Shown here in pieces: positions 10,927 to 37,242 of a stretch of DNA of 64,000 nucleotides; within the stretch, counting starts at the first letter, position 1, and every line of letters starts with the position of its first letter. The notes beneath the pieces were generated by a model. The model was not told the DNA's origin, did no database searches, and saw nothing but the letters and a program-made list of their open reading frames with translations. The translations under genes were made by a program, and so were the position numbers. The stretch spans positions 522,853 through 586,852 of the forward strand of contig CAWINB010000004.1 in the NCBI GenBank assembly GCA_963837465.1, given 5' to 3'. This stretch comes from Candidatus Doudnabacteria bacterium. GTDB taxonomy: Bacteria; Patescibacteriota; Doudnabacteria; UBA920.

Positions 10927-10931
10927 ATTCA

Positions 10932-14069: not shown

Positions 14070-14282
14070 ATGCGGTCAAGCAATAAATCTAAAATTTCTG
14101 GGAACATAAAAAAATACCGAAATAAACTCGGTATTTCACAAGACCGTCTATCCAAGTTAGCCGATGTGACTTACAACACAATGATTAAAATAGAATCCGG
14201 CGCTAACCAAAATCCTACAATAGAAACCTTGGCAAAAATTGCCAAAGCTTTAAATGTCGGAGTAGATGATCTTATTAAATAA
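14070..14282 (+). CDS. XRE-family (Cro/C1) helix-turn-helix regulator
   Basis: 70 aa. IKKYRNKLGISQDRLSKLADVTYNTMIKIESGANQNPTIETLAKIAKAL is a canonical HTH_3. Confidence 0.8.
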   Translation: MRSSNKSKISGNIKKYRNKLGISQDRLSKLADVTYNTMIKIESGANQNPTIETLAKIAKALNVGVDDLIK

Positions 14283-14303
14283 TAATATAGCGATATATTT
14301 TAT

Positions 14304-15275: not shown

Positions 15276-15291
15276 ATAAGTTAATTGCGTT

Positions 15292-15429
15292 CTGCGTCCC
15301 CCAAAAAATCTTCCCTGTTCCCGAACCTGTTTTTAAAAAATCAAAAAATTGTTTCCACCCCACAAACACAATGGGCTGCGCTAAGCGCAGCCCTTGGGAA
15401 AGTTGGAAAAATTCCTTTGTGTAATATCT
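15292..15429 (+). repeat. Serine-recombinase 3'-end module, copy b (remnant in the opposite orientation to SR1)
   Basis: CTGCGTCCCCCAAAAAATCT...GGGCTGCGCTAAGCGCAGCCC...GTGTAATATCT. Encodes a ...LFLKNQKIVSTPQTQWAALSAALGKVGKIPLCNIL remnant (ORF 15285-15479). Confidence 0.6.
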
Positions 15430-15884
15430 TGGTGAATTTTCTTAGTGAAGCTCACACCTATTATATCCAAAACAGCTAACTTTGCCTACCCCATTACCCC
15501 CTGCAATACACCCTTGCCGAGGCCAAAACTTTAGCCTAAAATGGAAGCAACTGGTACTTTCCAGCTGTATGAACAGCTGTATGAACATCATTCATACAGT
15601 TTGGCTGTTAAACCCCTTAATTCCATTACCTCTCACTACTCCAAATACCCCTGACTACTATATATCACCAGATAATCTAACTGAACGACAAAATAGATAA
15701 TAATACTAAAAATAATAATAACTAAAATACTATACTTAAAATACTAAAATACTTAATACTAACTAAATACAAATATACTAAACTAACTTAAAACAAACCA
15801 AAAAAACAAGGGAAACAGAGAGGGGAAAAGTGGGGGGGTAGTTTCTCCCGCCGCCGGAGGCGGCGGTTTAGAGGGGGTGGACTG
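15430..15884 (+). repeat. 0.5-kb repeat family, copy 1
   Basis: Starts TGGTGAATTTTCTTAGTGAAGCTCACACC. 270-bp conserved core with a 72-codon ORF (MPTPLPPAIHPCRGQNF...) and hairpin CTGTATGAA-CATCA-TTCATACAG. AT-rich low-complexity spacer. G-run box GTGGGGGGGTAG...CCGCCGCC-GGA-GGCGGCGG...AGAGGGGGTGGA. Confidence 0.7.
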
Positions 15885-15908
15885 ATTTAAAAAATTAAAT
15901 TTGATTTT

Positions 15909-17534
15909 ATGGCAACTTCCAAATACGTTGTCGCCCATCCGGTCTCCCGTACCCCTTTGCCACCGTATTATCTTTTGCACCAAGGCGGCGCAGCAGGACA
16001 GGCCGTCTTGTCCCACCAGTTCAACCAAATGCCTGCGTGGCTTCAGACAGGTTCTCACATCGCCTCTTCCTTATTTTCTCTACTGGTTGTATATTTCATA
16101 CTAAGCTGGCTAGGATTTTTCCCCAAACACGCTTTTGAGAAGATAAAACTTAGAAAAAAGGACTTGGAAGCAGAATTTAAAGATAGTCTGTATTTTGAAA
16201 TCACCATCCCTAAAAATTCCCAAACCACGGCGTTCCAAGTCCAGCAAAAAATCCTCAAAGCCTTCCATTCAATTTACCAAGACCCGGTGGAAGGTGCTCA
16301 TAATTTTTCCACTACCTTTAGCCTAATTTATTTCTTCCAAAAGCTCTGGCGGCATTGGAAAGTCAAACGCAGTAAACAAGTATTTTTCAGTATGCAGATT
16401 TGGGCCCAGCACCCGTATATCTCCTTTAGGCTACAGGTGCCGGGGGCTGACTTTGGGCGCATTGAAAAGGCCATTTTCAATGCCTATCCCAATGCGGAGA
16501 TTACTATGCTAGAAAAATCCAAAGCCCTTGAGGAAATCAAGCAATTTCCACAAGGCTTTTTAAGTTACGGCGAAACTACTATTGAGGGACAATTTTACCA
16601 TAGAGTTAAAACCTTAAAAGACGTATCATCAGACCCTGTAGACTCTATTATCTCGGTTATGGAAGGTCTAAAGCCAGGGCAGTTTATGGCCTACAATATT
16701 TTAATCTCCCCTTCTTCCCATTACTTCAATCAAATCATCCACTACCTTATTGAAGAGCAGGAACAAAAAGGGGTGGTAGACCAAAACCAAAGAAGATTGG
16801 CCATTCAGAAATTTGGCAGCGGTTCGGAACTGGCCAATGCCCTAAACTCCGCCATGATTGAAAAGATGAAAGCCCCTCTTTTCCAGACCATTATTTCCTA
16901 CTGGGCTATTGCCGATACCAAACACAGTGCGGAAGATAAACTCAAAAGTATCCAAGGGGTGTTAACGGAAATCAATCAAAAGAACATGAATACCCTTAAG
17001 CACCAACACCTGTTTACCAAACAGGTGGGTGCTCTTGAGCGGAAAGGCAAGCTGACAGAGATTATCGCCCAAAAGCCGGTGTTCCGCCTAAAGCGTTTTC
17101 CCTTATGGCCATTTGCCAAGTTCAAAAACTACGGGCAGGTCATCTCTGACAGCGAGCTATACTCTTTCTGGCACTTGCCGAATACCACGGGAGGTACGGT
17201 ATCTTCCATTAGGCTGACTAAATTTAAAAAACTCCCGGCCAGCCAAGCGCTTCGGGAATATTCAGACAATTTTTTCATCTCCCTGGGTCATGCCAATTTC
17301 CGTATGCAGGAAGAAACACCAATCGGCATTGCCAGCTGGGAAGACATGAAAAAGCACGTTTACATCCTTGGCGGTACCGGCTCCGGCAAGTCCGAGACTT
17401 TAAAAACCATTCTCCATAGCCTACTGGAAAAAGACAACGACATATCCGCTTACCCTATTGAGCTTCGCCAGGGTTATGGCTGGCAAAAAGAATGCCCTAG
17501 CAGCATTACCCAAAACTGCCCTACTGATAATTGA
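15909..17534 (+). CDS. HerA/FtsK/VirB4-VirD4 superfamily ATPase, N-terminal part (gene interrupted by a frameshift)
   Basis: 541 aa. N-terminal TM segment LFSLLVVYFILSWLGFF. Walker A ILGGTGSGKSETL near its C-terminus. The frame changes between 17404 and 17476. Confidence 0.55.
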   Translation: MATSKYVVAHPVSRTPLPPYYLLHQGGAAGQAVLSHQFNQMPAWLQTGSHIASSLFSLLVVYFILSWLGFFPKHAFEKIKLRKKDLEAEFKDSLYFEITIPKNSQTTAFQVQQKILKAFHSIYQDPVEGAHNFSTTFSLIYFFQKLWRHWKVKRSKQVFFSMQIWAQHPYISFRLQVPGADFGRIEKAIFNAYPNAEITMLEKSKALEEIKQFPQGFLSYGETTIEGQFYHRVKTLKDVSSDPVDSIISVMEGLKPGQFMAYNILISPSSHYFNQIIHYLIEEQEQKGVVDQNQRRLAIQKFGSGSELANALNSAMIEKMKAPLFQTIISYWAIADTKHSAEDKLKSIQGVLTEINQKNMNTLKHQHLFTKQVGALERKGKLTEIIAQKPVFRLKRFPLWPFAKFKNYGQVISDSELYSFWHLPNTTGGTVSSIRLTKFKKLPASQALREYSDNFFISLGHANFRMQEETPIGIASWEDMKKHVYILGGTGSGKSETLKTILHSLLEKDNDISAYPIELRQGYGWQKECPSSITQNCPTDN

Positions 17535-18783
17535 CCCTAAAAACGACTTTGCCACGGATTTATTAACCATGATTCCTGAGAACAGGAAACAAGATGTGGT
17601 TTACTTTAATCCGCAAAGACAAAAGAACAGGCCTTTGGCTTTTCCGTTCTTTTCCAAGTTTTCCGGGGACAAGACCGATGAGGAAAAACTGGAGTTTTTA
17701 ATCTCCATTATGAAAAGGTTTGTGCAAATAGATTCCAGTTATTCTTGGGGGCCGGAACTGGAAAACATCCTAAGGCAACTGTTTGCTACGGCTTTTGTCT
17801 TGCCCGAGCAATCTCTGTCCGGCCTTGACTTACTGCTCCACCAGCAAAGCCAGATTAAAAACATTATCAGATATCTGCCGGAACGGCTTAAGGGGTTTTG
17901 GCAGGATTCAATTTTAAACCGAACAAACAACGATCTGGCTAAGTATTTGGCCACAACTAACAACAAGTTGGGCAAGTTTTTGGATTATCCCGAGTTTATG
18001 AATATCGTGGACAGACAGGGTACAAAAATATCCTTTGAAGATATGATTAACACCGGCAAGATATTTATAGCTAACCTTGGCTCTTCCAGCGAGCAGATGA
18101 AAAAGTACTATTCAGTTTATCTAACCGCCCATATTGCCGAGGCTATCTTTGGTCAGGCTAGGTTTAACAGCGAGGACAGAAAACCAGCAGTCTTTGTGGT
18201 AGATGAGTTCCAAAGAGTGGCCAGCGACATCTTTGAGACCTTGTTTTCCGAGGTTAGGGCTTTTAACACGGCCTTAGTCATCTCTAACCAGTTTATGGGT
18301 CAGCTGGATATTCGTATACAAAAATCCATAGAGTCCAACATTGCCACCAAAATCTTTATGCGGACCCAGTCGGTGGATGACGCCGAGATTGCCGAAAAGA
18401 TATTAGGCCAGAAGGTTTTAGTTGAAGACATTATTAACCTGCCCACAGGTACCGCTTACATCAAGACTTTGGTTAATGGTATACCCCAAGACCCCCTGTC
18501 TATTAATATCCAGAAAACAGAACATCCCAAAGACGCTTCCAAAGACATGGAGGATTACTTTATCAATATGGCTATGGACAAGTACGGTACACCCCTTGAG
18601 GACATATTAAAAGAGCGCACCGCCATAAATTCTCTCTATTATTCAGGAGGGCAAGAAAATAAATTTCACGAAGCTATGGGAAAGCATAGAACCTTTGCCG
18701 CCCCAGATCAAGGAACGGGAGGCAAAGACCAGCAGATGGAAGAACCGCCGGAGCCGGAGGATCCAGAGCCACAAAATATTTAA
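17458..18783 (+). CDS. HerA/FtsK/VirB4-VirD4 superfamily ATPase, C-terminal part
   Basis: LLIIDPKNDF (DP-x-G/N-D/E motif that follows Walker A in this superfamily), Walker B VFVVDEFQ, TALVISNQ. TTG start; continuous with 15909-17534 after a +1 shift. Confidence 0.55.
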   Translation: MSFARVMAGKKNALAALPKTALLIIDPKNDFATDLLTMIPENRKQDVVYFNPQRQKNRPLAFPFFSKFSGDKTDEEKLEFLISIMKRFVQIDSSYSWGPELENILRQLFATAFVLPEQSLSGLDLLLHQQSQIKNIIRYLPERLKGFWQDSILNRTNNDLAKYLATTNNKLGKFLDYPEFMNIVDRQGTKISFEDMINTGKIFIANLGSSSEQMKKYYSVYLTAHIAEAIFGQARFNSEDRKPAVFVVDEFQRVASDIFETLFSEVRAFNTALVISNQFMGQLDIRIQKSIESNIATKIFMRTQSVDDAEIAEKILGQKVLVEDIINLPTGTAYIKTLVNGIPQDPLSINIQKTEHPKDASKDMEDYFINMAMDKYGTPLEDILKERTAINSLYYSGGQENKFHEAMGKHRTFAAPDQGTGGKDQQMEEPPEPEDPEPQNI

Positions 18784-22571: not shown

Positions 22572-23043
22572 TTAAACCCCCTTCAAATTTTTGCTTGTTT
22601 CCAGTCACATGGGTGGCGAAATTGCCAAAACCACGACTTTCGCACAAAACAAAACCGCCTCAATCTTTTGTGAAAGAGGCGGTGTTAAGAACGAATTAAA
22701 TCACGCTCAAGACGGCCGCTTCCAGCAAAGTTGCAGCCATCATCATGTTTAAATTTTTTAGATAAAAATTCATGGGAATAAAATAAAAGACCCTTTTGCA
22801 AGGGCCTTGAATGTTGAAGATTTACACAAAACAAAATTCAGCCCTTGCGATTAAGGTTTAACATTTTCATCATTTCAGTTTTGGCAGAAATTTGTCGGTT
22901 CATAAGCTTAAAATCATCTTACTCCAATTAAAGAAAAATGTCAATGGGAGGGTACCACCATTATTTATTTGCGCCAATTTTTTTGCACTTATGGCCCATA
23001 GAAAAAGCCACCCTGTGAAGGATGGCTAAATCTTGTTTTTGGT

Positions 23044-23205
23044 TTAAACTTCAAAATATTTCTTGATGTTAAGGTTGCAGGAGCCGCAACCCGGACAGGT
23101 AATGGTGTCCAGGTCAATGATTTCTTGCCTGCTGGCGCTCCAGCAATTTTGGCAGTTGGGGCAGGTGATTAAGTATTGGAAGTAGGCTGTTAGTGTTTTT
23201 AGCAT
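23044..23205 (-). CDS. Small zinc-ribbon protein (53 aa), not in ORF track
   Basis: MLKTLTAYFQYLITCPNCQNCWSASRQEIIDLDTITCPGCGSCNLNIKKYFEV with CPNC...CPGC pairs. Confidence 0.3.
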   Translation of the reverse strand: MLKTLTAYFQYLITCPNCQNCWSASRQEIIDLDTITCPGCGSCNLNIKKYFEV

Positions 23206-23267
23206 TTGTGTTTTGTTAATTATTTTAAGAAAGAATTTTTGTTTTTGTTTTGGTTTTGGTAAGCGGT

Positions 23268-23465
23268 CTAGAGGGAATTCTTGACCGTGATGTACGAGGA
23301 AACTTTTTTCCCGTAATCGTGGTAGTCGCTGGACTTGGGATCTACAGACTTTCTCAACTCCAAGTAGTAGTTGATACTTCTCTGCAAAGCCGCCTTGATG
23401 ATATTTGACTTCATCTCCGGCGTCAGTCCCTGTTTTGCGCTAACTGCCTTTTTGAATTGTGGCAT
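23268..23465 (-). CDS. Hypothetical small protein (65 aa)
   Basis: Strong SD AAAGGAG 7 nt upstream of ATG. Preceded on the minus strand by structured leader copy B. Confidence 0.35.
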   Translation of the reverse strand: MPQFKKAVSAKQGLTPEMKSNIIKAALQRSINYYLELRKSVDPKSSDYHDYGKKVSSYITVKNSL

Positions 23466-23493
23466 GTTAACTCCTTTCTTTGCTTAATTATTA

Positions 23494-23610
23494 TGGCGAA
23501 ATAACACTGGCCGCAGGTTATGGCAGTCAAGGGATTAAAAGCGATTTATGCCCTACGGGAAATAAAGAGCTTTTACCCTTGACCGGCCATAAACGGACAG
23601 TAAAATGGAA
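23494..23610 (-). promoter_or_regulatory. Conserved structured leader element, copy B
   Basis: TGGCAGTCAAGGG...TAAAAGC-GATTTATGCCCTACGGGAAATAAAGA-GCTTTTA...CCCTTGACCGGCCA. Nested helices P1, P2 and CCC-TAC-GGG. A hairpin AGAGCGGT-ATGAATA-ACCGCTCT with T-run at 23655-23690. Confidence 0.35.
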
Positions 23611-23997
23611 ATCCATAAGAAAGCAAAGGCTGTTTTAAAAGCCGTAGACAACATAAAAGAGCGGTATGAATAACCGCTCTACATTTTTTGGTTTGTATTA
23701 AAATTTATTGGGCTTGCTTTTACAAGTCCAATTCGTCTAGATCAATCCCTACATCTTCCATTCTTTGTAAGGCCTCGTCTGCGTCGCCATTGTTAATCTG
23801 CTCGGCTAATTCTTCCTTAAGCCCGTCTTCGTCAACTTCCATTCTGATTTCATCGTCCAAATCTTCAAGCGGCATAAATTTTTCATATTATACTTCAACT
23901 TTACCATTCAAATCTATCAACCATATTTTGGATTGCTCCTTTAATGCGGTCAATAATTCCTTGTCGTTCTTTAATTTTAGGCACTTCTGGTAGTAAA

Positions 23998-26700
23998 TCA
24001 ACAATTTCCTGGCCATTGGGCAGTTTTTGTGTGTAAAGGTATTCGCCAATCAGAATGCTCAAACTTTTCAACTGGAATATTTTCAGCCTTTGCAATGCTC
24101 TTTAAACTCGCGGAACGCTCACTTGCCCAAAAATCGCTAAAGGCTTTTTCAACATCGTCCGCTTTGCCGATTTTTGGCAAATTTTCTTCAATAAATTTCT
24201 TGATTAAGTCTTTTTTCTTACGAAGCTGGACATCCCTGTCAAATAAACGCAAAATTTCTTCAGTTTTCTTTTTGCGCACAACATCGGAAGTGCTGTTTTT
24301 AATCCCCGCTAGAAGCAAAATAATGTAGTCAAAATTAATAATATCTCTGGTTGTCAATTCAATTTCAAAATCAATCTGGTCTAAAATAGATTCGGGTCCG
24401 TTATTGTTATTTTTACGGTCTTCATAAACATCTAAGTATTTGCTCTGGTAATCAAAAAATTCTTGCTCGGTTATCCCGAGATCCATAAATGAAAAATCCG
24501 CAAAAGTTTCCAGTGATGATTTGATTCTTAGCAAGTCACGAAATGTCTTTATAAACTCCGCTTTTTCTTCCTCGCCCTCTAGTTCGTCAACAAATGCAAT
24601 AGTTGGCACCTTTTCTCGCAATTCAGCAAGTTTATCTTCAAACTCTTTTTTTTGCATTTCGTAAGGCTTTTTAAATACGACTTCTTTAGCGTTTTCGTCG
24701 CCAAAAAGCGCCAAGGCTGTATCGGTTGCCTCTTTTAAGTTCCTAAACGACACAATATTGCCGTGGGGCTTGTCGGAGTTCAGCAGCCTGTTAGTGCGCG
24801 AATACGCCTGAATAAGCCCGTGGTAGCGTAAATTCTTGTCTACATACAGCGTATTAAGCCGTGGGCTATCAAAACCTGTTAAAAACATATTTACCACCAA
24901 GACAAGGTCAACTTCCTTATTCTTGATTCTTTTTTGCAAGTCTCGGTAATAATCGTAAAAACGGTCGGTTGAAAAATTGGTAGAATATTGTTTGTTGTAA
25001 TCTTTTATGCAATTTTCCAAAAAGTCTCTCGAATGCTGGTTAATGACCGCCCCTTCATCATTAAACACATCCACATCGAGCATATCGGAACTTTCGTCCT
25101 CATTGGCTTTATAAGTAAAAATTGTCGCAAGGCTAAAATCTGCCGTTTTTTTATTTTTTAGTAATTTATAGTATTTCTTTAATATTTCAATACTGGAAAC
25201 GGCGAATAACGCGTTAAATTTTCCATTCTTTGTTTTTCGTTTCCAATCCGCCAGAACGTAATCAGTAATTTTATTTAGCCGGTCGTCGCTTTCCAAAACT
25301 TCTTTGGTGTTTATGCCTTCCACCAATGAATCTGCAAAAATATCCGCATCTAGCGTATCTGGGTCTTTTTGTTTGTATTTTCCAACGTATTCAACCGCAA
25401 AACCCAACACATTGTTGTCGGAAATTGCGTGGGTAATAATGTATTTGTGCAAACATTCTTCAAAAACATCCACCGTGGTTACGCCACCAACATTATTTTC
25501 GGCAAAAATTGGCGTACCGGTAAAACCAAAAAGCTGGGCTTTTTTGAAGAAGCCTTTTATCCGCGCATGGGTCTGCCCAAACTGGCTTCGGTGGCATTCA
25601 TCAAAAATCACTACCACTTTTTCATTAGCCAAATATTCAAATTGTTTTAAATACGATTCTCTCCCAATAGCAATATCCAATTTTTGAATTGTGGTAACAA
25701 TAAGTTTTCTGTTTTTGTCTTCCAATTGTTTAACCAGGCTGTAAGTGTTGTTCGTACCGTCCACCGCGCCTTCGGAAAAAGAATTAAACTCATTAGTTGT
25801 TTGGATGTCCAAATCCTTCCGGTCAACCACAAAAATCACTTTTTTGATTTCCGGTATTTGCGAAAGCACCTGGCTGGCTTTAAATGATGTTAAAGTTTTT
25901 CCCGATCCGGTTGTGTGCCAAATATAGCCATTTTTGTTAGTTTCCTTAACGCGTTTTTCAATAGCTCTAACTGCATAATACTGATATGGCCTTAGCACCA
26001 TTGGGATTTTGGTAGTCTCCGCCAGTATAATATATTCCGCAATCATTTTTGACACAGTACACTTTTGCAAAAATACGTTAGCAAATTCATCCAGTTGGTT
26101 AATTTTCCTGTTGTCTACATCTGTCCAATAAAAAGTCTGCTCAAATGATTGTTTTGAGTTATTGGAAAAATATTTTGTATTGACTCCGTTAGAAATAACA
26201 AAAATCTGTATATATTCAAATAATGTTCCGGTAAAAGAATGCTTATGATATCTCTGTATTTGGTTAAAAGCCTCTTTTAACTCCATCCCCCGGCGCTTTA
26301 GCTCCACCTGTACCAGCGGCAAGCCATTTACCAACAAAGTTACATCGTACCTGTTTTCGTACTTGCCCACCTGGGTAATTTGCTGTGCCACCTGATACTC
26401 ATTCTTGCACCACTGTTCCATATTAAAAAACCGCGCATAAAAGATACTCCCATCATCCCGGGTCAAAACAAACCTGTCCCGCAAAGTCTTGGCTTTCTGG
26501 AATCTATCACCTTTGTTTAAATGATTTAATATCCTTGTAAATTCATCATGCGTAAAAACTACCCCATTAAACTTTTCCAACTGCTTACGTAAATTGACTA
26601 TCATTGCAGCACTGTCTTCCAACACCACAGGTAAAAATCCCAACCGCCTAAGCTGCTCAATTAATGTTTTTTCAAGTTGTTGTTCGGATTGATGAGTCAT
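23998..26700 (-). CDS. hsdR: Type I restriction enzyme R subunit
   Basis: 900 aa. Motif [14 protein letters not shown], motif [11 protein letters not shown] (DEAD/DEAH-box helicase core), N-terminal nuclease-like region. Last gene of the hsdM-S...R operon. Confidence 0.9.
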
Positions 26701-26703
26701 AAA

Positions 26704-28605
26704 TTATGATTTATTATTCCATATTTCTTCTAATACAATAGTCCCACTATTAGGTCTATTTTTTTTATCTAGGAGATCAATGCTAACTTTTACTGGAATT
26801 TTTACAGCCAGACCTGCAAAAAAACAGCTACCTGTTGAAAGTATAGAAAGAGAGTCAAATGATAGTTTGTCTAAATAAGACACTGTTTTATTAATTGCAT
26901 TTATATCATAATTATTTACCAATTTGTGAATAAAATAATTATGCAACTGAGAGATAATTGTTGTAGAAATATCGTAAGGTCTTTGACTGGCAATTGTTAA
27001 AAAAACATTAAACTTTCTTCCTTCTTTGATTATTTCTTCGAATGTTTCAAGTCTATAATCTTTCCAGGTTTCACTTTCTCGTTCTGAGGAACTCGATAAA
27101 ATATTATGAGCTTCGTCTACAATTAAATGCAATGATTTGCCTTCATAATTATTTTTATGTTCTTCATAAAGTTTTTTGGCAATAATTAGGGGTAATGTTT
27201 TTTTAATTTCAAGATTAGTATTTTTTAAATTTAAAACAACTAAATTTTTACCAGATGGAAAAATTGAATTGCTACTTTCTGTATCTAATATCTTCTCTAT
27301 ATCTTTTTGTTTACTCTTTAATTTATTAATTGCTGGAGAAATATGCTCATTTTGAGCCTTATCATTATAGACATCAAATATTATTTGTAGGTAAAGAAAA
27401 TGTATTAGTTTTGAGATGGCATTTTTAGGGAAAACATAGGCATCAATTTTATTATATAAATCTAAGTTGACTATTTCCTCTTCAGAAATTTGTTTATGTA
27501 CCGTACTACGGGGTAACATAAAATAATTTAAAGTATTGTGCCATTCTGGTATTTTGATTGAATTTGTATCCGTATCTGATATACTCAGAATAATTTTTAT
27601 ATAATCTAATAAAATATGCGACTTTTCTTTTATAACCATTAACAAAATATCTTTTAATCTTTTTTTGAGAATATTTTTAAAAAATTCAAGTGGGTTATTA
27701 TCGTTGCCCATCTCATCTTTTTCTTTATGAATTTTCCTGTAAAAATCAATGGCTCTACTGATAAATGGTCTTTGAGTTTTGTCAGTAGCATTTGAAAGAA
27801 TGGAAATTAGTTCAACATTCATCAAATCGGCTTCTTTTAAGGGTATCTTTTTATCTGTTTCAATTGCACTTAATTCCTTTTTTGTATCTAAAAAATACAC
27901 TTGTTTATTTTCCGTTAGAATCTCATCTTTGTCTCCACCTTTAATTTCTTTTGCATATTCTCCATTAAAATCAAAAATAACAAATTTTGAATTTTCATTA
28001 AAATTGGAGTTGTCTTTATATAATTTAAATAGCTCATGATAAATCTTTGCCAAAGTATTAGACTTACCGCTACCGGTATTTCCAAAAATACCAATATGGC
28101 TGGCGAACAAACCGTTAACACTTACTTCAATTTCTTGAGAAGGCTCTTCTGTTAAAGGACCCAAGGGTATTTTTTGTTCTGTATCTTTATAAAATTGATG
28201 TAAGATATTAAATTCTTCTTTATCTAACAAATAACACTTGTTGTCAATTAATGGCATTTCTTTAATACCCTGCTCAAATTTAACTCCATCAAAATGTCCA
28301 AATAAAGTAACCTCTAAATATCGGACAATTTTTTGTTCTTCTTTATTATATTCTTCATTAAAAATCCTTTCGGTTGTGATAAATTCTCCCTCTACCTTAC
28401 CAATAATTTCAACAAACCCTTTCATAATTTTTACAAAACCACCAACAGAAACATTTTTTAAAATTTTGCCCTGATATAAAAGATGGGATGAGTTTTTATT
28501 TTTATTTACCTTAATTTTTACCTTTCTGCCCTCAACAGAAGAAACGTAGCCAATAATAAAAATTGACTCCTTAGTAAGGCTTCTTTGTATTTGTTCATTA
28601 CTCAT
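26704..28605 (-). CDS. HerA-like (DUF87) ATPase, defence-associated
   Basis: 633 aa. N-terminal HAS-barrel-like region (YLEVTLFGHF), Walker A GIFGNTGSGKSNT, Walker B LHLIVDEAHN. 3-bp gap to hsdR, 8-bp overlap with upstream gene. Confidence 0.7.
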   Translation of the reverse strand: MSNEQIQRSLTKESIFIIGYVSSVEGRKVKIKVNKNKNSSHLLYQGKILKNVSVGGFVKIMKGFVEIIGKVEGEFITTERIFNEEYNKEEQKIVRYLEVTLFGHFDGVKFEQGIKEMPLIDNKCYLLDKEEFNILHQFYKDTEQKIPLGPLTEEPSQEIEVSVNGLFASHIGIFGNTGSGKSNTLAKIYHELFKLYKDNSNFNENSKFVIFDFNGEYAKEIKGGDKDEILTENKQVYFLDTKKELSAIETDKKIPLKEADLMNVELISILSNATDKTQRPFISRAIDFYRKIHKEKDEMGNDNNPLEFFKNILKKRLKDILLMVIKEKSHILLDYIKIILSISDTDTNSIKIPEWHNTLNYFMLPRSTVHKQISEEEIVNLDLYNKIDAYVFPKNAISKLIHFLYLQIIFDVYNDKAQNEHISPAINKLKSKQKDIEKILDTESSNSIFPSGKNLVVLNLKNTNLEIKKTLPLIIAKKLYEEHKNNYEGKSLHLIVDEAHNILSSSSERESETWKDYRLETFEEIIKEGRKFNVFLTIASQRPYDISTTIISQLHNYFIHKLVNNYDINAINKTVSYLDKLSFDSLSILSTGSCFFAGLAVKIPVKVSIDLLDKKNRPNSGTIVLEEIWNNKS

Positions 28606-29719
28606 GCTTTTCAGGTTTCAAGTTAATTCGCTTAAAAAAAACTTCTGTAACCGTACTTAAATCATAAGAATGGATCTCTTCTTCTCCCTCAAATTCATTC
28701 AAAACAATCGTTATGTTTGGAAACTTGAGAATTTCCATCTTATCTTCCATTTCTTTTCTTTTTTCTTTTGAGTGTAAAAATATGAAAATCCGCAGTGTCG
28801 GATTTGATTTTGCAACCCGTTTAGTTATTTCTTTAATATGTTGGTCTGTCATTGAAAAGCCAATCACAAAGAGAACAGAATTTACACGTTCTAATTCACT
28901 AGAATATGAGCGTAATAACTCATAATAATATTTATTTAGTACTGTTTCAGAAAACTTTGCACTCTCTGGATTTACAACAAGTATTTTTTCTTTATAATCA
29001 TCTGTAAACCTTTTCCCAGTCCTTTTTAACAACTTACTATCAAAATGATCAAGCTTAGAAGAAAGCAATATTTTTCTATCTTCTCCTGTCTTGCTGGTTT
29101 CATATTTCCAAGTAAGCGAACCATGAACTTTTAAAATATTAAAAATTGGGATTTCTGATTTATGATCAAAATGCAAACTTCTCTGAAAGACAGATTTTTT
29201 AAAGTTAGATAAAGAAAACGTAGGGTTTAATCTTCCTGAAAAACCATCATTATAATCAATGAACAAATCTTCTAAAGTTTTTTCAAAAAATGGATCAATA
29301 TTTGTAGTAAATATGTTAACTTGTTTATTAAGTATGGTAGTTTCTCTTTCTAAAATTAGCTTAGTTATTGTTTGCAAAAATTTTTCATAAGATTTTTTTG
29401 TATCCCTAAAATCAATTTCTTCAGTCCTGTCCTCACCGTTACTATTTTTTAAACTATTTCCTGTTGCATTTTTTATGGAATCTGTTGAAAATTGTTGTGA
29501 AAAAACCTTTTTATTTGGAAGCATTACCGTTTCTATATACTTTTTATAACCTAGTATTTGCTCTTTGGTTTTGTTGTCCCTAATTGCATTATTTATTTCG
29601 CTTTCAATACCACCTAAGATTGGCAAGAATGGAGTAGAAATACCAGCACCAAAAAGAAAGTTCACATTCGAACTCTGAATTATTTCTTTTAGTTCTGTTA
29701 TAAATTTATCTTTTTTCAT
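28598..29719 (-). CDS. SIR2-like NAD-binding domain protein, defence-associated
   Basis: 373 aa. VNFLFGAGIS (sirtuin GAGIS Rossmann motif) and LKVHGSLTW (catalytic His in the HG motif). Confidence 0.65.
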   Translation of the reverse strand: MKKDKFITELKEIIQSSNVNFLFGAGISTPFLPILGGIESEINNAIRDNKTKEQILGYKKYIETVMLPNKKVFSQQFSTDSIKNATGNSLKNSNGEDRTEEIDFRDTKKSYEKFLQTITKLILERETTILNKQVNIFTTNIDPFFEKTLEDLFIDYNDGFSGRLNPTFSLSNFKKSVFQRSLHFDHKSEIPIFNILKVHGSLTWKYETSKTGEDRKILLSSKLDHFDSKLLKRTGKRFTDDYKEKILVVNPESAKFSETVLNKYYYELLRSYSSELERVNSVLFVIGFSMTDQHIKEITKRVAKSNPTLRIFIFLHSKEKRKEMEDKMEILKFPNITIVLNEFEGEEEIHSYDLSTVTEVFFKRINLKPEKHE

Positions 29720-29725
29720 ATACCT

Positions 29726-30928
29726 CTATACAAACAACCCTTGCATCAAGCCTTTTTTCCATTGCTCGGCTTGGGTGATTTGTTGTTGTTTAGATTCTAT
29801 TACATTGTCGACCGAAGTTAAAAAATCTGCGATTTTTTGCTGTTCCGGAAGGGTTGGAACGGGTAATTTTATATTTGAATATTTAGAAATCCAATGCCTG
29901 CCGTGTCCGCCAATTTCATATTTAATTTGGGTCATAGCTTCATATATAAATTTTATATCGGTCCCATCTTTTGCTTTTAAAATTTTCATCGCCGATGATT
30001 TAACTTTAAATGGAAAATCAACAAACTGCGATGTTGTAGTAAAATCATCAAATATTATTACAGGCAAATCAGTTGTCAGAAAAATTCCACTCGTTTCGTC
30101 TGTAAATCCCAATATAAAAGTTTTACCGGCAGTTAAAACAGGGGTTTTGTAACTACTATCGTATTCTGTGCTTTTTACAATATAATTAGTTGGCTGTTCA
30201 TAATCTAAGCAATCCGCCAACTTTTTCCCTTCCCATTTGGGAAAATCTTTTCCTTTTTCATTTTTAAAACGGATTTCTTGGGAAAATATTTTTTGTACTA
30301 TTCCTTTTTTGTAGGATTCAAAAGATTCTTTTTGCTTTTTTAAATTTTCTATCCACTCATCAACTGCCCCAACAAAACCTATTAACTTTTTTTGTTCGGG
30401 CAATGAGGGTGTATGAATACTAAAATTAGAAACTTGGGCCAAAGAAATATTACTTTGAGCCAATCCTACTTTTAGTCTGTTAATTTGGTTTTGAATAAAA
30501 TCCGAACGCAAAACTTCCCTTATATATTTTGAACTAACCCCACTTTTTGGTGAAATAATCGCAAGTGCCTGGTTTGTATTGGCAGGTAGGACATCTTTAT
30601 TAGCCATCACCACCCGCCCAAGAGCCCCAGCAATTGAAAACAAAATATCACCTTCTTTTAACTGAGACCTTTTTAAGGCCTGATTACAATTTTCATCAAT
30701 ATGAGCAAATTTATCAATTAAAAAATTGCCGTCTTCGGTAATTGATTCAATCTTAATAAAATTAATTCCGCTCTTAGTATAGTTAAACCCCAACGTAGTC
30801 GGGGTAGTCCCTTTTGTAATTCTATCGGAAATATCCCCCAACTTTTTTTCCTCCCACTCACCAGAAAAACCCGGAAAGCGGAGTTTTGGGATTTTTTTAT
30901 TTTGCAGTTGTGCGGCTTTTGCTGGCAT
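29726..30928 (-). CDS. hsdS: Type I R-M specificity subunit
   Basis: 400 aa. Two target-recognition domains separated and followed by conserved LPSLPEQKKLIGFV... and LPVPTLPEQQKIADFLTSVD helices. Confidence 0.8.
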   Translation of the reverse strand: MPAKAAQLQNKKIPKLRFPGFSGEWEEKKLGDISDRITKGTTPTTLGFNYTKSGINFIKIESITEDGNFLIDKFAHIDENCNQALKRSQLKEGDILFSIAGALGRVVMANKDVLPANTNQALAIISPKSGVSSKYIREVLRSDFIQNQINRLKVGLAQSNISLAQVSNFSIHTPSLPEQKKLIGFVGAVDEWIENLKKQKESFESYKKGIVQKIFSQEIRFKNEKGKDFPKWEGKKLADCLDYEQPTNYIVKSTEYDSSYKTPVLTAGKTFILGFTDETSGIFLTTDLPVIIFDDFTTTSQFVDFPFKVKSSAMKILKAKDGTDIKFIYEAMTQIKYEIGGHGRHWISKYSNIKLPVPTLPEQQKIADFLTSVDNVIESKQQQITQAEQWKKGLMQGLFV

Positions 30929-30930
30929 AA

Positions 30931-32508
30931 TTAAAAAGGTTTGTTGATTTTTAGTTCCTCACAAAATTCCGCAATCTTTTTTTGTAGACTTAACTCATTT
31001 ATGTTTAATTCTTTGAGTATCTTAGCAACGCTTTCTATATCAATAATCTCTTCTTCTTCAAATGTGTCCACATAGCGCGGAATGTTTAGGTTGTAATCGT
31101 TTTCTTGAATTTCTTTTATGGTTGCGCGGTGGGAATACTTTTCTATTTCTTTTCGGTCTTTATAGGTTTCAAAAATTTTGGCGATGTGTTCATTTGTTAA
31201 ATAATTTTGATTACCTCTCTTTTCAAATTCTATGGAAGCATCAATAAACAAAATATCTTCATCATCTTTGCGGCATTTTTTAAAAACAAGAACTGTTGCG
31301 GGAATGGAGGCTCCATAAAACAGGTTTGCCGGCAGGCCGATAACCGCATCCAAATAGTTTTGTTTTTCTATAATATATTTTCTTATGTGGCCCTCCGCAC
31401 CGGACCTAAAAAGCGCGCCATGAGGCAAGACTATGGCCATTGTGCCGTTGTCGGCAAGGTGGTGAAGCATATGAGTTACAAAGGCATAGTCCGCGGCGCT
31501 TTTAGGTGCCAGTCTGCCGTATTGGGAAAAGCGGTCATCGTGCGCTAGGGCTGGATCTGTGTCTCCTTTCCACTGGGCGGAAAAAGGTGGATTGGCAACA
31601 ATCGCCTCGGCCTTTAGGTCTGGGTACATATCTTCTTTAAGCGTATCGCCTTGGCGAATGGAAAAACGAGTAAAATTTATCCCGTGCAAAATCATATTCA
31701 TTCTGGCCAGGTTGTATGTAGTTGGATTAAGTTCTTGCCCGTAATAATTAGCTACGTCCGTAAATTCACCAAGACGAAGCAAAAGGGAGCCGCTACCACA
31801 GGTTGCGTCGTAAGCAGATTTAATACGTTTTTTATCTAACGAAACAATTTGTGCAAGCAAACGCGATATTTGAGCGGGGGTGTAATACTCGCCGCCTTTT
31901 TTACCGGCCCCGGCCGCAAATTCTCCAATTAAATATTCGTAGGCATCACCTAACAGATCGCTCTTAGCGTCTTCAAGTTTAAAATCAATACCCGCTAGAA
32001 GCGTTAGCACTTCCACAACAACTTCGTTCTTTTCGTTTTCCCGTGAACCCAGCTTTGAGGAAGCAAGGTCGATATCATCAAACAAGCCCTTAAAGTCGTC
32101 TTCGCTTGCTGTTCCGGCGGAGGTCTTTTCTATATCGTTAAGGATATTTTTAAGATCCTCAAGAATAAAGGTTGTTTGACCCTTTATTTCACCTTTCCCT
32201 TTTTTAACCAGGTATGAAAAAAGTTCCGTCGGTTTAAGATAAAAACCAAGCTCGTCAATACAAGCCTGTTTTGTATGTACCAGATATTCCCGGCCTTCTG
32301 CCGCAGTTTCTTTTACTTGGTCAAAAGTAATTTTGTCGCTAACTAAAAGTTTTTCATTTACATAGCGCTCCAGCTTTTCAGAAAGATATTTATAGAAAAT
32401 AAAGCCAAGAATATAGTTTTTATATTCATCAGCGTTCATCTTCCCGCGAAGCACATTCGCAACGCCCCATAATTGTTTTTCTAACAGCCTTTTTTGTTCT
32501 TCTGACAT
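30931..32508 (-). CDS. hsdM: Type I R-M N6-adenine DNA methyltransferase subunit
   Basis: 525 aa. HsdM N-terminal domain; catalytic motif IV VANPPFS; SAM motif DATCGSGSLL. Confidence 0.9.
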   Translation of the reverse strand: MSEEQKRLLEKQLWGVANVLRGKMNADEYKNYILGFIFYKYLSEKLERYVNEKLLVSDKITFDQVKETAAEGREYLVHTKQACIDELGFYLKPTELFSYLVKKGKGEIKGQTTFILEDLKNILNDIEKTSAGTASEDDFKGLFDDIDLASSKLGSRENEKNEVVVEVLTLLAGIDFKLEDAKSDLLGDAYEYLIGEFAAGAGKKGGEYYTPAQISRLLAQIVSLDKKRIKSAYDATCGSGSLLLRLGEFTDVANYYGQELNPTTYNLARMNMILHGINFTRFSIRQGDTLKEDMYPDLKAEAIVANPPFSAQWKGDTDPALAHDDRFSQYGRLAPKSAADYAFVTHMLHHLADNGTMAIVLPHGALFRSGAEGHIRKYIIEKQNYLDAVIGLPANLFYGASIPATVLVFKKCRKDDEDILFIDASIEFEKRGNQNYLTNEHIAKIFETYKDRKEIEKYSHRATIKEIQENDYNLNIPRYVDTFEEEEIIDIESVAKILKELNINELSLQKKIAEFCEELKINKPF

Positions 32509-32602
32509 AAATATATTTTATAGCTACTTTTATAGTATATACTCTCTTGCTAAATTAATTCCGAAATGTTAGACTAAGGCTAATAACCTTAACCCTAACA
32601 AA

Positions 32603-33022
32603 ATGTACCAAATAAAATTGTCGGTAAGCGAGCTTAAGAAGATTAAACAACTACAAGAAAAGGAGAAAAATGCCAGAGTTTTGCGCCGTCTTGAAGCCAT
32701 AAAGCTCTTAAGCCAGGGGCAAAGCCATCAGGAGATCGCGGAAGCGCTGAATGTATGCATGGATACAATCACAGATTGGGTAAAAATTTACCAATCAGGG
32801 AAACTCCCAGGATTATGTGAACTGCAATTTAAAGATAAGCGAAAGTCAAAAATTAATGATTATGTAGAGCAAATCAAACAGGATGTAAAAGACAACACCA
32901 TTACGACTTTAGCTGAAATGCAGGCCTGGATTAAGGAAAAGTACTCAATTGAAATGGAACAAAGCTGGTTATGGCGTTGCTGTAAAAAAAACTCAATTTA
33001 TCTTACAAAAAAACCCGTATAG
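32603..33022 (+). CDS. IS630 transposase OrfA (HTH part)
   Basis: LRRLEAIKLLSQGQSHQEIAEALNVCMDTITDWVKIY is a Tc1/IS630-type HTH. Ends just after A AAA AAA (33007-33013). Confidence 0.75.
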   Translation: MYQIKLSVSELKKIKQLQEKEKNARVLRRLEAIKLLSQGQSHQEIAEALNVCMDTITDWVKIYQSGKLPGLCELQFKDKRKSKINDYVEQIKQDVKDNTITTLAEMQAWIKEKYSIEMEQSWLWRCCKKNSIYLTKKPV

Positions 33023-33639
33023 TTCCCAGCGGCGCGCCGACACAGGAAGTTCAGAAGGATTTCGTAAAGTTCATTCTTAAAACCATAAAGAAAGCCAATG
33101 AGGATAAGGATATTGTACTATTTTTAGACCCCGCCCACCAAGTCCACAATGTTGATAATAGCTACTGCTGGCAACTTAAAGGTAAAAATGAAACCAAAGC
33201 CGTGCCATCCAATAGCGGCCGGGAAAGATTGACCGTCATCGGTGCCATTGGCGTGGAAAACTTCAAACCGACTATTCTGACGACGACCGATAACTGTGAT
33301 GGGCAAATGATGACGGTATTTTTAGGGGAAATCAGAAAAGATTATCCTGAAGCCCAAACCATATACATTTTCCTGGATAACGCCAAGTACAACCACAGTA
33401 ATTTGGTAACAGCGGAAGCAAAACAGTTAGGTATTGAACTGTTGTTTTTGCCGCCATATTCCCCAAACCTTAACTTAATTGAACGGCTCTGGAAATTCAT
33501 GAAAAAGAAAGTTAAAGCCAATAAGTATTACAAAACTTTTGTTGAGTTTACAAGCGCTATACATGATTTTTTTAAAAACATCGCTCAATACAAACCGGAG
33601 CTTGAAAAACTGTTAACCCTTAATTTTGAGATCATATAA
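32986..33639 (+). CDS. IS630 transposase OrfB (DDE part, via -1 programmed frameshift as an OrfAB fusion)
   Basis: The -1 frame is open from 32986: ...KKTRIVPSGAPTQE...LFLDPAHQVH...IYIFLDNAKYNH...PPYSPNLNLIERLW (D, D, E). Confidence 0.7.
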   Translation, partial: KKLNLSYKKTRIVPSGAPTQEVQKDFVKFILKTIKKANEDKDIVLFLDPAHQVHNVDNSYCWQLKGKNETKAVPSNSGRERLTVIGAIGVENFKPTILTTTDNCDGQMMTVFLGEIRKDYPEAQTIYIFLDNAKYNHSNLVTAEAKQLGIELLFLPPYSPNLNLIERLWKFMKKKVKANKYYKTFVEFTSAIHDFFKNIAQYKPELEKLLTLNFEII

Positions 33640-33853
33640 TCGGAATTAATTTAGCAAGAGAGTATATCTTAATTTTATCACTTTTTAAGCCTTTTGGACA
33701 ATCTTAATTTAAAGCCCCGGGCTCTGTTAAAGAGCCCGGGGCTAGGCAAAAATTACAACTTTTTTAACAGCTTATGGCCACAACAAGACAAATCTTATAG
33801 CCGCTGGTCGATATTAACGATTTGGATATATAATACTCGCAGAAAGGAACTTT

Positions 33854-35000: not shown

Positions 35001-36287
35001 CTAACCTTTAACTCTAGCAAAGTCAATTTTAAAATCCTCATCAGGCAGTATATTTCTTTTAACCAAATCTAACAGCCGGTCTTTTTCTTTTTCTAATGAG
35101 GCAACTTGTTTTTTAACTACTTCTTTCCTTTGAGCTAGTTCCTTTGAATGACCGCCCCAAACATCTAAAATGACCTTTTTAAAGGCATTTAAGACTTCGG
35201 CATTCGGAGTAACCCCTTTTAAACACTTATCAAATTCGTCCTCTAGTGTTTTTTTAGCGATAGCTTTTTTGGAGGGGCAGACTTTATGGTAACAGCGGTA
35301 GTAAGGATAAAGGCCACCTAACCTGCCTTTGGAAAAACAGGCAGTTAAGGGACGGCTACACAATCCGCAGTCCACTTGGTGTCGCAGGGGGAAAGCTTCA
35401 TCTGTTCGGCTACCGGCTATGCAATCGCCTTTGGTAGTTTTAGGAAATTGTTTTTGATTTTTGTAATGGGTTTCTTCGCTGATGAGTGCAGGGTGAGTGC
35501 CTTTAAACTCCCCAAATTTGCTAACAATAATACCGCAGTAAAACTTTGAGGCTAAAATTTTATGAATGAGTTGGGTTGAAATCTCTTTACCCTTTTTGCT
35601 TCTAAGTCCCAGCTTGTTGGCTTTCTGCCGTAGCTCTTCTTGGGTATACATTCCAGAGGAAAATTCCTCTAACAAAAATTTGATTATATTACAGCGTGTT
35701 GAGTCTAATACTATGGATTTGTCTTTTTTGCCGTGATTTTGGTTTAAGTAACCAAGCGGAGCGTGGTGCGGCGAACGGCCGGATTGCAGACACTTGATTA
35801 TGCCGTCGGTAACTCTTTCGCTTCTAACATCGTTATCCAGTTGGGCAATGCTGGCCATCATGTTCCCCATGAACTTGCCAAAAGAATTATTGCCAATAGC
35901 TTCAGTGGTAGAAACTAACTCAACATTAAGTTTATCCAGCAAACCTTTAATGGCCGAATAGTCATTGACGTTCCTTGAGAGCCGGTCAACCTTGTTAACG
36001 ATAATGAAGTTGATTTTGTTTTTCTTGTCAGCTACAAATTTCAGCATGTCTTGCAAGCCAGGTCGGTCAGCGGTCTTTGCAGATTCTCCCTCATCGGAAA
36101 ATAACTTAACGATGGTTATGCCCTTGTCATCGGCGTATCTCTGGCAGGCTTCTTTTTGGTTATCCAAACTAAAACCGTCCACTTGGTCAGCTGTGGATAC
36201 TCGATAATACATTACGCCATTTTTCAAATTTTCTTGAGCCATAAGTTTAAGCCAAAATATTATACACCCTTTCGCTCCTTGTCCCAA
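35001..36287 (-). CDS. Large serine recombinase (SR2)
   Basis: 428 aa. N-terminal MYYRVSTADQVDGFSLDNQ...VNKVDRLSRN resolvase catalytic domain, recombinase domain, Cys-rich region CGLCSRP...YYRCYHKVC. Confidence 0.85.
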   Translation of the reverse strand: MGQGAKGCIIFWLKLMAQENLKNGVMYYRVSTADQVDGFSLDNQKEACQRYADDKGITIVKLFSDEGESAKTADRPGLQDMLKFVADKKNKINFIIVNKVDRLSRNVNDYSAIKGLLDKLNVELVSTTEAIGNNSFGKFMGNMMASIAQLDNDVRSERVTDGIIKCLQSGRSPHHAPLGYLNQNHGKKDKSIVLDSTRCNIIKFLLEEFSSGMYTQEELRQKANKLGLRSKKGKEISTQLIHKILASKFYCGIIVSKFGEFKGTHPALISEETHYKNQKQFPKTTKGDCIAGSRTDEAFPLRHQVDCGLCSRPLTACFSKGRLGGLYPYYRCYHKVCPSKKAIAKKTLEDEFDKCLKGVTPNAEVLNAFKKVILDVWGGHSKELAQRKEVVKKQVASLEKEKDRLLDLVKRNILPDEDFKIDFARVKG

Positions 36288-36402: not shown

Positions 36403-37242
36403 TCATGGCTGTGAGGCTTTGTTTGTTAAAAAGCTTGCTGTATCAAAGCCGTCAGGAAATTGTAAAGTAATCTTTTTTATTTCCCTGCCGTCCAAAGAAA
36501 CAAACGGTTCATGTTCAATGACCTTACATTTGGATAAATCAATCCTATCTAAAACTTTTAAATTTCTGTTGTGGTCTAAACTGGCTTCGGGTTTTTTAAG
36601 TCCCCTTGAACAAAAATATCTTTTTCTAAATTTTTTATGCTTCTTGTCAAAATCTTTTCTGATATACTTGGCGACATAATTGGCTAAGTGGTCTAAATTT
36701 TTAATCTTCTTACCCACGACTGAACCTTGCGCCCAGAGCTTTTGGAAAGTCTTAAAAATATCCGTTATATGGGGCATATTCAAAAACACTGCGTGATAAT
36801 GCACTGACCCGCCGTCAGGTTTTATTTTGCCGTAAAAATCTACATCCTTTTGAAATTCCGGCACACAAATATAACAAAGTTTTTTACCTGTTTTTTTAAA
36901 ACAGTAATAATTAAAGCGTTTAATAAAATTTTTCCAAATGGGATGAGCGACATCAAAGCTGGTGGTGCTTTTGGCAAAGGTGAAAGTATAAAAATATGGG
37001 TTATGGGGCTTCTGCGTCTGCGAATTAAAGTATTGCCAGCCATTGCGTTTGAGTATTTTTCTAAGGCGACTTCTGGATTTGCTAATACACTCAGCAGGAT
37101 TTTTAATAACATCGTCATCAGCCAGCCTAGCCGTACGCCTTACTTTGCCCTTGGGGGTAAAATCAAAGCCAATGGGTTTATCAAATTCCAATAAATCCAT
37201 GTGCGAACCCTGAAAGATAATTTTAAGTTTGGTAGTTTTCAT
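36403..37242 (-). CDS. Rolling-circle replication initiator, Microviridae gpA/VP4-like (HUH superfamily I)
   Basis: 279 aa. Motif I FYTFTF, motif II SVHYHAVF (HUH), motif III ANYVAKYIRKD with two Tyr 4 residues apart, as in the phiX174 gpA active site. Confidence 0.6.
   Translation of the reverse strand: MKTTKLKIIFQGSHMDLLEFDKPIGFDFTPKGKVRRTARLADDDVIKNPAECISKSRSRLRKILKRNGWQYFNSQTQKPHNPYFYTFTFAKSTTSFDVAHPIWKNFIKRFNYYCFKKTGKKLCYICVPEFQKDVDFYGKIKPDGGSVHYHAVFLNMPHITDIFKTFQKLWAQGSVVGKKIKNLDHLANYVAKYIRKDFDKKHKKFRKRYFCSRGLKKPEASLDHNRNLKVLDRIDLSKCKVIEHEPFVSLDGREIKKITLQFPDGFDTASFLTNKASQP

Follow-up and report, generated by a model that had tools for sequence, protein, structure and literature searches.

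Within a 64,000-nucleotide stretch of a Candidatus Doudnabacteria genome (contig CAWINB010000004.1 of assembly GCA_963837465.1, positions 522,853 to 586,852; hereafter the window), five closely packed minus-strand genes join a type I restriction-modification (R-M) system to a SIR2-HerA pair. We consider it likely, with a probability of about 0.8, that these genes form a composite anti-phage locus on an integrated mobile element, in which an AT-rich sir2-herA cassette of 3.0 kb sits in the cargo slot of a type IC operon and would act as an autonomous second layer of defence, held to the R-M genes mainly by genetic linkage. An earlier model-made annotation of the same DNA, relying on the letters and their open reading frames (ORFs; hereafter the original prediction), had proposed a SIR2-like and HerA-like pair nested in a type I R-M operon as one composite defence locus; that proposal is upheld by the present analysis, in which sir2-herA was found to fill exactly the slot between hsdS and hsdR.

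All five ORFs lie in the window exactly where the original prediction had placed them, and its spacing of -8 to +6 bp agrees with the junctions as read from the sequence: hsdM and hsdS are +2 nt apart, hsdS and sir2 are +6 nt apart with GAGG just upstream, sir2 and herA share the overlap ATGAGTAA, which is 8 nt long, and herA and hsdR are +3 nt apart (Table 1). The families it had assigned (HsdM, HsdS, SIR2, HerA and HsdR) were all recovered with Pfam and PADLOC profiles. For hsdR, the open frame that it had reported is correct and the gene end is not, as a 1-bp insertion near 24053 diverts the reading frame and both the true frame and the homology to relatives run on to 23901. In guanine-cytosine (GC) content, sir2 (0.29) and herA (0.27) fall below hsdM (0.40), hsdS (0.35) and hsdR (0.38), which marks the pair as a compositionally distinct insert.

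Table 1. Features of the composite locus and of its surroundings in the window
Feature	Position	Strand	Evidence
hsdM, type I R-M methyltransferase subunit (525 aa)	30931..32508	-	Pfam, PADLOC
hsdS, specificity subunit (400 aa, two target-recognition domains)	29726..30928	-	Pfam, PADLOC
sir2, SIR2-family NADase-type effector (373 aa)	28598..29719	-	Pfam, PADLOC, sequence and fold matches
herA, HerA-family ATPase (633 aa), 8-nt overlap with sir2	26704..28605	-	Pfam, PADLOC, fold
hsdR open frame (900 aa), EcoR124I-like (type IC) restriction/motor subunit	23998..26700	-	Pfam, PADLOC
Displaced true 3' end of hsdR, beyond the 1-bp insertion	23901..24053	-	Frame reading, DNA alignment, blastn
Likely operon terminator, bidirectional (8-bp stem, 5 G-C pairs, T-run)	23658..23680	-	Terminator scan
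IS630-family insertion sequence, divergent from the operon	32537..33667	+	Terminal inverted repeats and ORF domains
tRNA-Lys(CTT), overlapping the 3' end of an opposite-strand large serine recombinase gene (12392-14014)	12407-12483		
Further serine recombinase, other side of the operon	35001-36287		
Further serine recombinase, other side of the operon	39324-40913		
Rep gene	36403-37242		

Sequence and fold both identify the two cargo proteins. SIR2 scores 52 bits against Pfam SIR2_2 (cut-off 24.5) and 193 bits against the PADLOC SIR2 model PDLC04080, and its best sequence matches in the PDB are 8j4u_A, 8yhx_G and 8w9l_A. The FLFGAGIS and KVHGSLTW motifs, which had been singled out before, are found at residues 21-28 and 197-204, and N140, D142 and H199 are invariant among 40 homologs. 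N140 and H199 align with the catalytic dyad N226/H287 of S. aureus Sir2, an enzyme in which the H287A mutation abolishes NADase activity (PMC11514289), and the putative catalytic residues Asn140 and His199 of the window protein are intact. AlphaFold models of SIR2 and HerA were built as single chains from homolog alignments. The SIR2 model (predicted local distance difference test, pLDDT, 77; predicted template modelling score, pTM, 0.80) models as a Rossmann-type sirtuin, the fold on which the original prediction had hinged for this 373-aa protein; when it was compared with the PDB by Foldseek, the top 39 matches were SIR2 chains of SIR2-HerA complexes, followed by ThsA, DSR2 and others.

HerA matches Pfam DUF87 with 72 bits and, over its full length, the PADLOC HerA model PDLC04097 with 594 bits; its best PDB sequence matches are 8yho/8yhx, 8j4u_M and 8wiv/8wld. 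The Walker A (GNTGSGKS, 175-182) and Walker B (LIVDEAH, 494-500) motifs, also noted earlier, are invariant among 25 homologs. In the AlphaFold model (pLDDT 72.5), residues 17-162 are beta-rich and HAS-barrel-like, and the top 50 PDB fold matches are all HerA proteins from SIR2-HerA, DUF4297-HerA and archaeal HerA-NurA, with neither VirB4 nor TraC, the grouping that the original prediction had named as one that would refute it, among those 50. In sequence, SIR2 and HerA thus match partner chains of one set of solved SIR2-HerA complexes, those of E. coli, S. aureus and Paenibacillus, so that a known anti-phage module, as first claimed, is what the pair resembles. We also considered the pair as a new SIR2-HerA subtype on account of its low identity to the structures, and dropped the idea since PADLOC already has models that recognise it (193 and 594 bits).

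The extent of the insert is set by where DNA homology stops. By blastn and alignment, homology with relatives (~75-79% identity) runs as far as the hsdS stop (29727) and is picked up again at the hsdR ATG (26700); along the whole operon, the homology track takes in hsdM and the start of hsdS, leaves a gap over the variable recognition domains, returns for the hsdS 3' end, leaves a second gap and then follows hsdR to 23901. Because homology breaks at the hsdS stop and at the hsdR ATG, we delimit the slot as 26701-29725, filled exactly by sir2-herA. We fetched the contigs of seven relatives among those closest in HsdR (83-88% identity) and saw a different slot content in each, comprising an AlbA_2/HATPase_c_4 protein (L082/L083, in our numbering of loci), an Old/AriA-like ABC ATPase (L084), PDC-S42 (L085), SduA with a 246-aa protein (L086/L087), a 271-aa protein with an AbiJ-like protein and a 246-aa protein (L088), the KAP NTPase PDC-S49 (L089) and, in L081, a 348-aa protein followed by a SIR2 and a HerA that are 74% and 76% identical to those of the window. 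The cargo 3' ends lie -4 to +3 nt from the hsdR ATG in all relatives inspected. In L081, the stretch directly upstream of sir2 (4779-4880) is a degenerate hsdS 3' end interrupted by in-frame stops, with an intact hsdS and the 348-aa gene further upstream; we read this relic as the footprint of block recombination in the conserved hsdS 3' segment, which would have stacked one cargo upon another.

A metagenome scan added 80 loci of this R-M family, and hsdS and hsdR were both visible in 63 loci overall, with slot counts that are approximate as some surveyed loci duplicate others (e.g. L090 = L082). The slot was empty (<=4 nt) in 11 of the 63 loci and occupied (645-4294 nt) in 52; relatives without the insert, a point that the original prediction had left to such a survey, thus exist. 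When the 107 cargo proteins of at least 100 aa were clustered, those of a second slot between hsdM and hsdS included, 68 clusters were obtained, and at least 60 unrelated cargo families occupy the hsdS-hsdR slot. Among the cargo sampled were PDC-S06 (AAA_13), an AbiA/DRT reverse transcriptase, several Old/AriA/GajA-like ABC ATPases, a Ppl-like protein and a GajB-like UvrD helicase, with ABC-ATPase cargo present, for example, in L084, L100, L142 and L164. SIR2-HerA was found in the slot of L081 alone among the 63 surveyed loci, plus the window. Judged by its gene content, the hsdS-hsdR slot is a defence-gene hotspot and SIR2-HerA a rare filling of it.

The second cargo position, between hsdM and hsdS, is less used, being filled in ~25 surveyed loci (L088, L089, L091, L103, L120 and others), and in L088 it holds an AlbA_2 protein. 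A conserved protein of 241-246 aa is the last cargo gene before hsdR in five loci (L086 7257-7997, L088 7258-7998 and three others); its partners vary (SduA, AbiJ-like), and it has no Pfam or PADLOC match.

To place the pair itself among its relatives, we turn to a scan at one genome per species, which yielded 80 loci with HerA relatives of 42-69% identity. A sir2 gene lies directly upstream of herA in essentially all of these loci that have upstream DNA. An R-M-type methyltransferase or helicase gene was found within 10 kb of the pair in 26 of the 80 loci, and 54 had no R-M-type gene in the fetched flanks, which extended up to 10 kb and were shorter in ~29 loci. About 20 of the 26 R-M-linked loci are clear type I or type I-like systems; three neighbours initially labelled HsdM/HsdR were rejected as type I, those of L006 and L026 being Eco57I/MmeI-like methyltransferases and that of L039 a generic helicase. 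In 17 loci the pair abuts an R-M-type gene on the same strand at <=100 nt. The arrangement takes several forms: 1) in four Bacteroidota genomes (L021, L025, L030 and L034), whose type I family is a different one, the pair is enclosed by hsdS and hsdR; 2) it comes after hsdR in L001, L003, L024, L044 and L048; 3) it comes before hsdM in L038, L042 and L047; 4) it follows an HsdR-like gene and a fused M-S gene in L008, L009 and L079. The slot of L025 (Thermophagus, 8821-16347) holds six cargo genes, encoding SIR2, HerA, an AlbA_2/MarR protein, GmrSD, AbiEi and AbiEii, and is a miniature defence island inside one operon.

The R-M-linked pairs do not group together in a neighbour-joining tree of HerA but are interspersed with solitary ones, and the pair is AT-rich (GC 0.26-0.34) in most hosts irrespective of the GC of its neighbours. 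The varied positions, the scattered tree and the solitary majority favour repeated and independent captures of a mobile, autonomous cassette over an R-M-dependent lineage. Given the rarity of type I loci per genome, the R-M linkage of ~30% is probably above chance; it may partly reflect ordinary defence-island clustering. A plasmid-collection search with the sir2-herA DNA returned only short ~70% matches to herA genes. In one Sediminibacterium locus (L005), we noticed two SIR2-HerA pairs on the same strand, ~2 kb apart (3980-6940 and 8852-11827).

In the carrier operon, hsdM and hsdS are intact, and hsdR is intact but for its 3' end. HsdM, equal in length to its relatives at 525 aa, matches Pfam N6_Mtase (358 bits) and HsdM_N as well as PADLOC MTase_I (537 bits) and has an NPPF motif at residue 306; DNA homology with relatives begins ~15 nt upstream of its ATG. 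HsdS shows two stretches of Pfam Methylase_S and matches PADLOC Specificity_I with 243 bits over residues 9-400, with DNA conservation restricted to ~100 nt at the start of the gene and ~120-145 nt at its end. HsdR carries Pfam HSDR_N, SWI2_SNF2/ResIII, T1R_D3-like and EcoR124_C domains, scores 999 bits against PADLOC REase_I and has the motor motifs GSGKT at 265 and DECH at 367. For a relative 88% identical to the window HsdR, the best PDB match is EcoR124I HsdR (2w00, 572 bits), and the family belongs to the EcoR124I-like, i.e. type IC, enzymes. The EcoR124_C match, however, covers positions 1-207 of the 260 in the profile only. Among the 119 matches listed, query excluded, homologs at 81-88% identity are nearly all 932 aa long, and nearly all of those listed cover 98% of the 900-aa query. 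An alternative frame carries the conserved tail, which ends in MVDRFEW* with its stop at 23901, the point to which blastn homology also extends. In a DNA alignment with five relatives, the window reads 'CATTCTGATT' vs 'CATT-TGATT', the extra base being a C on the minus strand near 24053 and outside any homopolymer. This 1-bp insertion exchanges the last 50 of 932 HsdR residues for 18 out-of-frame residues, and the deposited assembly encodes the exact 900-aa product.

Past the true hsdR stop and ahead of the terminator comes a 51-aa ORF (23720-23875, minus strand; 21 D/E, 3 K/R) whose predicted peptide is very acidic. Since a search of all 169 fetched loci gave no relative of it, the ORF may be a spurious one, or else encode a small protein of DNA-mimic-like character; it is left out of the system here.

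The five genes are probably transcribed together, as suggested by gaps of -8 to +6 nt and the lack of a strong internal terminator. In a scan of 23000-33500, the site at 23658-23680 was the strongest terminator-like site downstream of hsdR on the operon strand, and no site as strong was found between the five genes. Promoter-like sites numbered 42 against 34.6 +/- 5.8 expected, which is no excess; promoter and terminator scans are uninformative in DNA this AT-rich, and internal signals, which the original prediction had named as what could split the five genes, are compatible with the result. Upstream of hsdM, an IS630-family element, not mentioned in the original prediction, has at its two ends (32537-32564 and 33640-33667) perfect inverted repeats of 28 nt, for which chance predicts 0 matches, and carries a split transposase, with an HTH_23 ORF at 32603-33022 and a DDE_3 ORF at 33202-33639. 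The element, of which the window has a single copy, does not belong to the defence system and separates the operon from its former upstream DNA; since its edge lies 28 nt from the hsdM ATG, the native operon promoter has presumably been displaced. A -10-like TATAAA can be read within the 28 nt before hsdM.

Both halves of the locus have well-studied counterparts. Like the Gao_19/Nezha SIR2-HerA systems (E. coli 8j4u/8su9, S. aureus 8yhx and Paenibacillus 8wld), the window pair is co-oriented, with sir2 directly upstream of and overlapping herA, and combines a SIR2 Rossmann fold bearing an Asn/His dyad with a HerA made of a beta-barrel and a RecA-like ATPase with Walker A and B motifs; unlike these stand-alone pairs, it is embedded in a type I R-M operon. 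In being so embedded it resembles the prr locus of E. coli, laid out as hsdM-hsdS-prrC-hsdR according to the text of Payne et al. (2024, bioRxiv 10.1101/2024.01.29.577857), where cargo between hsdS and hsdR likewise combines an abortive-infection effector with restriction in one operon. The window cargo is, in contrast, a two-gene module predicted to deplete NAD+, whereas PrrC is an ABC-ATPase tRNA anticodon nuclease; moreover, pairs related to that of the window are mostly solitary, which speaks against obligate coupling. Under the term 'guilt by embedding', the same study describes thousands of defence genes that lie inside operons of the type I R-M, BREX, DISARM and Hma kinds, with the candidates added to PADLOC, and the window resembles its cases of a defence cassette inside a type I R-M operon (bioRxiv 10.1101/2024.01.29.577857). 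PDC-S42, PDC-S49 and PDC-S06, which were seen in the cargo of relatives, appear to come from that study. SIR2-HerA is not named in its text or its supplements, some of the latter covered in part. Unlike the genomes behind RefSeq-based surveys, the R-M family of the window comes mainly from Patescibacteria metagenomes, which such surveys cover poorly.

Defence genes nested in type I R-M operons have been on record ever since prrC. Among experimental work, TgvAB in the VPI-2 island of V. cholerae is a recent example of type I R-M-embedded defence (PMC11411939). Closer to the present case, GAO_19 SIR2/HerA pairs of S. thermophilus CR3 have been described as 'inserted between or downstream of R/M systems' and conferred phage resistance when cloned alone, without the neighbouring R-M genes (PMC11514479); those pairs lie between or after R-M systems in a large island of another phylum, unlike that of the window, which lies inside one operon. 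We found no explicit description in the literature of SIR2-HerA between hsdS and hsdR of a single operon. SIR2-HerA in this slot is a predictable combination of a known module with a known type of carrier operon, and it adds the pair to the short list of multi-gene known systems in the prrC position.

We propose that the locus would work in two layers. HsdM2S would methylate a bipartite self target, and HsdR would translocate on and cleave unmodified incoming DNA. By analogy with characterised SIR2-HerA, which forms a large complex whose NADase becomes active on assembly or infection cues and whose NAD+ depletion leads to abortive infection (PMC11514289, PMC11472057), a HerA hexamer may assemble with a SIR2 oligomer; infection cues or assembly itself would then switch on the NADase, and hydrolysis of NAD+, possibly together with ATPase and nuclease activities, would abort the infection. 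For one E. coli SIR2-HerA subtype, the triggers are a phage SSB and a RecBCD inhibitor, and DNA ends relieve an ATP checkpoint on the NADase (PMC13434337). Restriction would thus come first and SIR2-HerA abortive infection second, the latter autonomous in action, co-inherited and probably co-expressed with the former. Recombination in the conserved sequences on either side of the slot, at the 3' end of hsdS and the 5' end of hsdR, would exchange one cargo for another, and the newcomer would then travel and be expressed with the R-M genes. As for the window copy, the hsdR 3' frameshift and the IS630 element may have impaired its restriction arm.

Other readings have to be weighed against this two-layer scheme. 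The furthest from it denies a defence module altogether, taking the 633-aa ATPase as a conjugative VirB4/TraC/TrwB-type protein of the surrounding element and SIR2 as a housekeeping sirtuin. A marginal Pfam TrwB_AAD_bind match runs over the HerA P-loop, just under threshold (19.9 bits vs a 20.5 cut-off), and the surrounding mobile element has FtsK/TraG-like and relaxase-like genes; nevertheless, the conjugation protein was ruled out by the full-length PADLOC HerA score and the fold matches of both proteins, since 50 of the 50 best PDB folds for the ATPase are HerA proteins and the best SIR2 folds are defence sirtuins, not deacetylases. As the partner gene always encodes a SIR2_2 protein and the cassette fills a defence cargo slot, we give this reading practically no credence. 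Closer to our own is the idea of a functional link between SIR2-HerA and the type I enzyme. The pair, acting as a PrrC-style guard, would be held latent by the type I complex, or would sense its state, and would fire once the enzyme is disabled by an anti-restriction protein of the phage (an Ocr/ArdA-type DNA mimic or a Stp-like peptide); alternatively, in a 'restrict, then commit suicide' relay, HsdR would supply the DNA ends on which HerA loads and consumes ATP, so that the ATP checkpoint on SIR2 is lifted and the NADase released. The host R-M system is EcoR124I-like, hence type IC, and EcoprrI, the R-M host of prrC, is type IC as well. The cargo also occupies the slot that prrC does, its 3' end stays within -4 to +3 nt of the hsdR ATG in every relative inspected, and the proximity counts given above (an R-M-type gene within 10 kb in 26 of the 80 loci, abutting the pair on the same strand in 17) would fit a partnership, as would the relief of the ATP checkpoint by exposed DNA ends (PMC13434337). 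On the other side, most close homologs are solitary and the R-M-linked ones form no clade; the pair may lie inside, after or before the operon depending on the locus; cloned SIR2-HerA pairs protect alone (PMC11514479); and SIR2-HerA fills the slot in 1 of 63 surveyed relatives and the window. That at least 60 unrelated cargo families use the same slot speaks for a site open to cargo in general and against a specific partnership, and we regard wiring of the pair to the type I enzyme as distinctly improbable. Were it true, failed or overwhelmed restriction would be converted into NAD+ depletion, and recurrent capture of the pair by several type I families would reflect synergy, not hitch-hiking.

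Unlikely, in our judgement, is a locus in decay or silenced, in which the IS630 element and the hsdR frameshift have left an operon that no longer works as a whole, with at most the methyltransferase, and perhaps SIR2-HerA, still active. The insertion costs HsdR its last 50 residues without involving a homopolymer, the 900-aa product stands exactly so in the deposited assembly, the IS630 element with its perfect inverted repeats lies 28 nt upstream of hsdM, and frameshifted, temporarily inactive type I systems are common (PMC11514479). Yet the other four genes and 880 of the 932 HsdR codons are intact with all catalytic motifs present, the frameshift could be an assembly error, the end of an insertion sequence can supply or leave a usable promoter, and a -10-like TATAAA persists before hsdM. 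Several of the observations bearing on these alternatives also weigh against the composite two-layer locus that we prefer. Restriction may be lost through the hsdR frameshift, or the extra base may stem from faulty assembly of this metagenome-derived contig; with its promoter displaced by IS630, the operon could be silent; and internal promoters are possible, the scans being what they are in AT-rich DNA. Genetic linkage alone does not by itself explain why the cargo 3' end always abuts the hsdR ATG. Finally, the pair is only ~17-21% identical to any solved SIR2-HerA, so that we place it in a distinct subfamily with respect to the solved representatives, one that is covered by PADLOC PDLC04080 and PDLC04097.

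Taken by itself the locus is unremarkable; its use lies in what it tells of the carrier and of the linkage of such pairs to R-M genes. The type I R-M family is very widespread in Patescibacteria, and the boundaries of its slot are exact to the base pair, from the hsdS stop to the hsdR ATG. Because the slot occurs in empty and filled states, holds at least 60 cargo families and has left a recombination relic, the family can serve as a natural library for new defence genes in an under-sampled phylum. As about one third of the SIR2-HerA subfamily lies beside R-M-type genes, in several positions and with several R-M families, synergy between restriction and NAD+ depletion, or a guard logic, becomes testable.

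The operon is surrounded by mobile-element genes, which include FtsK/TraG-like genes, a replication-relaxation protein, RadC and an HTH_17 protein. The overlap of the tRNA-Lys gene with the opposite-strand large serine recombinase gene (Table 1) looks like the attachment site of an integrated element that carries the defence operon, and the extra serine recombinases and the Rep gene suggest nested or tandem elements. Chromosomal genes, namely exopolysaccharide glycosyltransferases and the type IV pilus genes pilB/C/M, flank the mobile stretch, and the closest relatives with a name, for HsdR, SIR2 and HerA alike, come from Patescibacteria (candidate phyla radiation, CPR), which suggests a CPR host. 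Two overlapping ORFs at 15909-18783, one with an FtsK/DUF87 P-loop and the other with TrwB/TraG-D_C domains, resemble a single conjugative coupling-type ATPase split by a frameshift, and such a split would again hint at sequence errors or at decaying genes in the element. Further along the window, an ORF of 2192 aa (45199-51777, minus strand) has a GC content of 0.50, above that of its surroundings.

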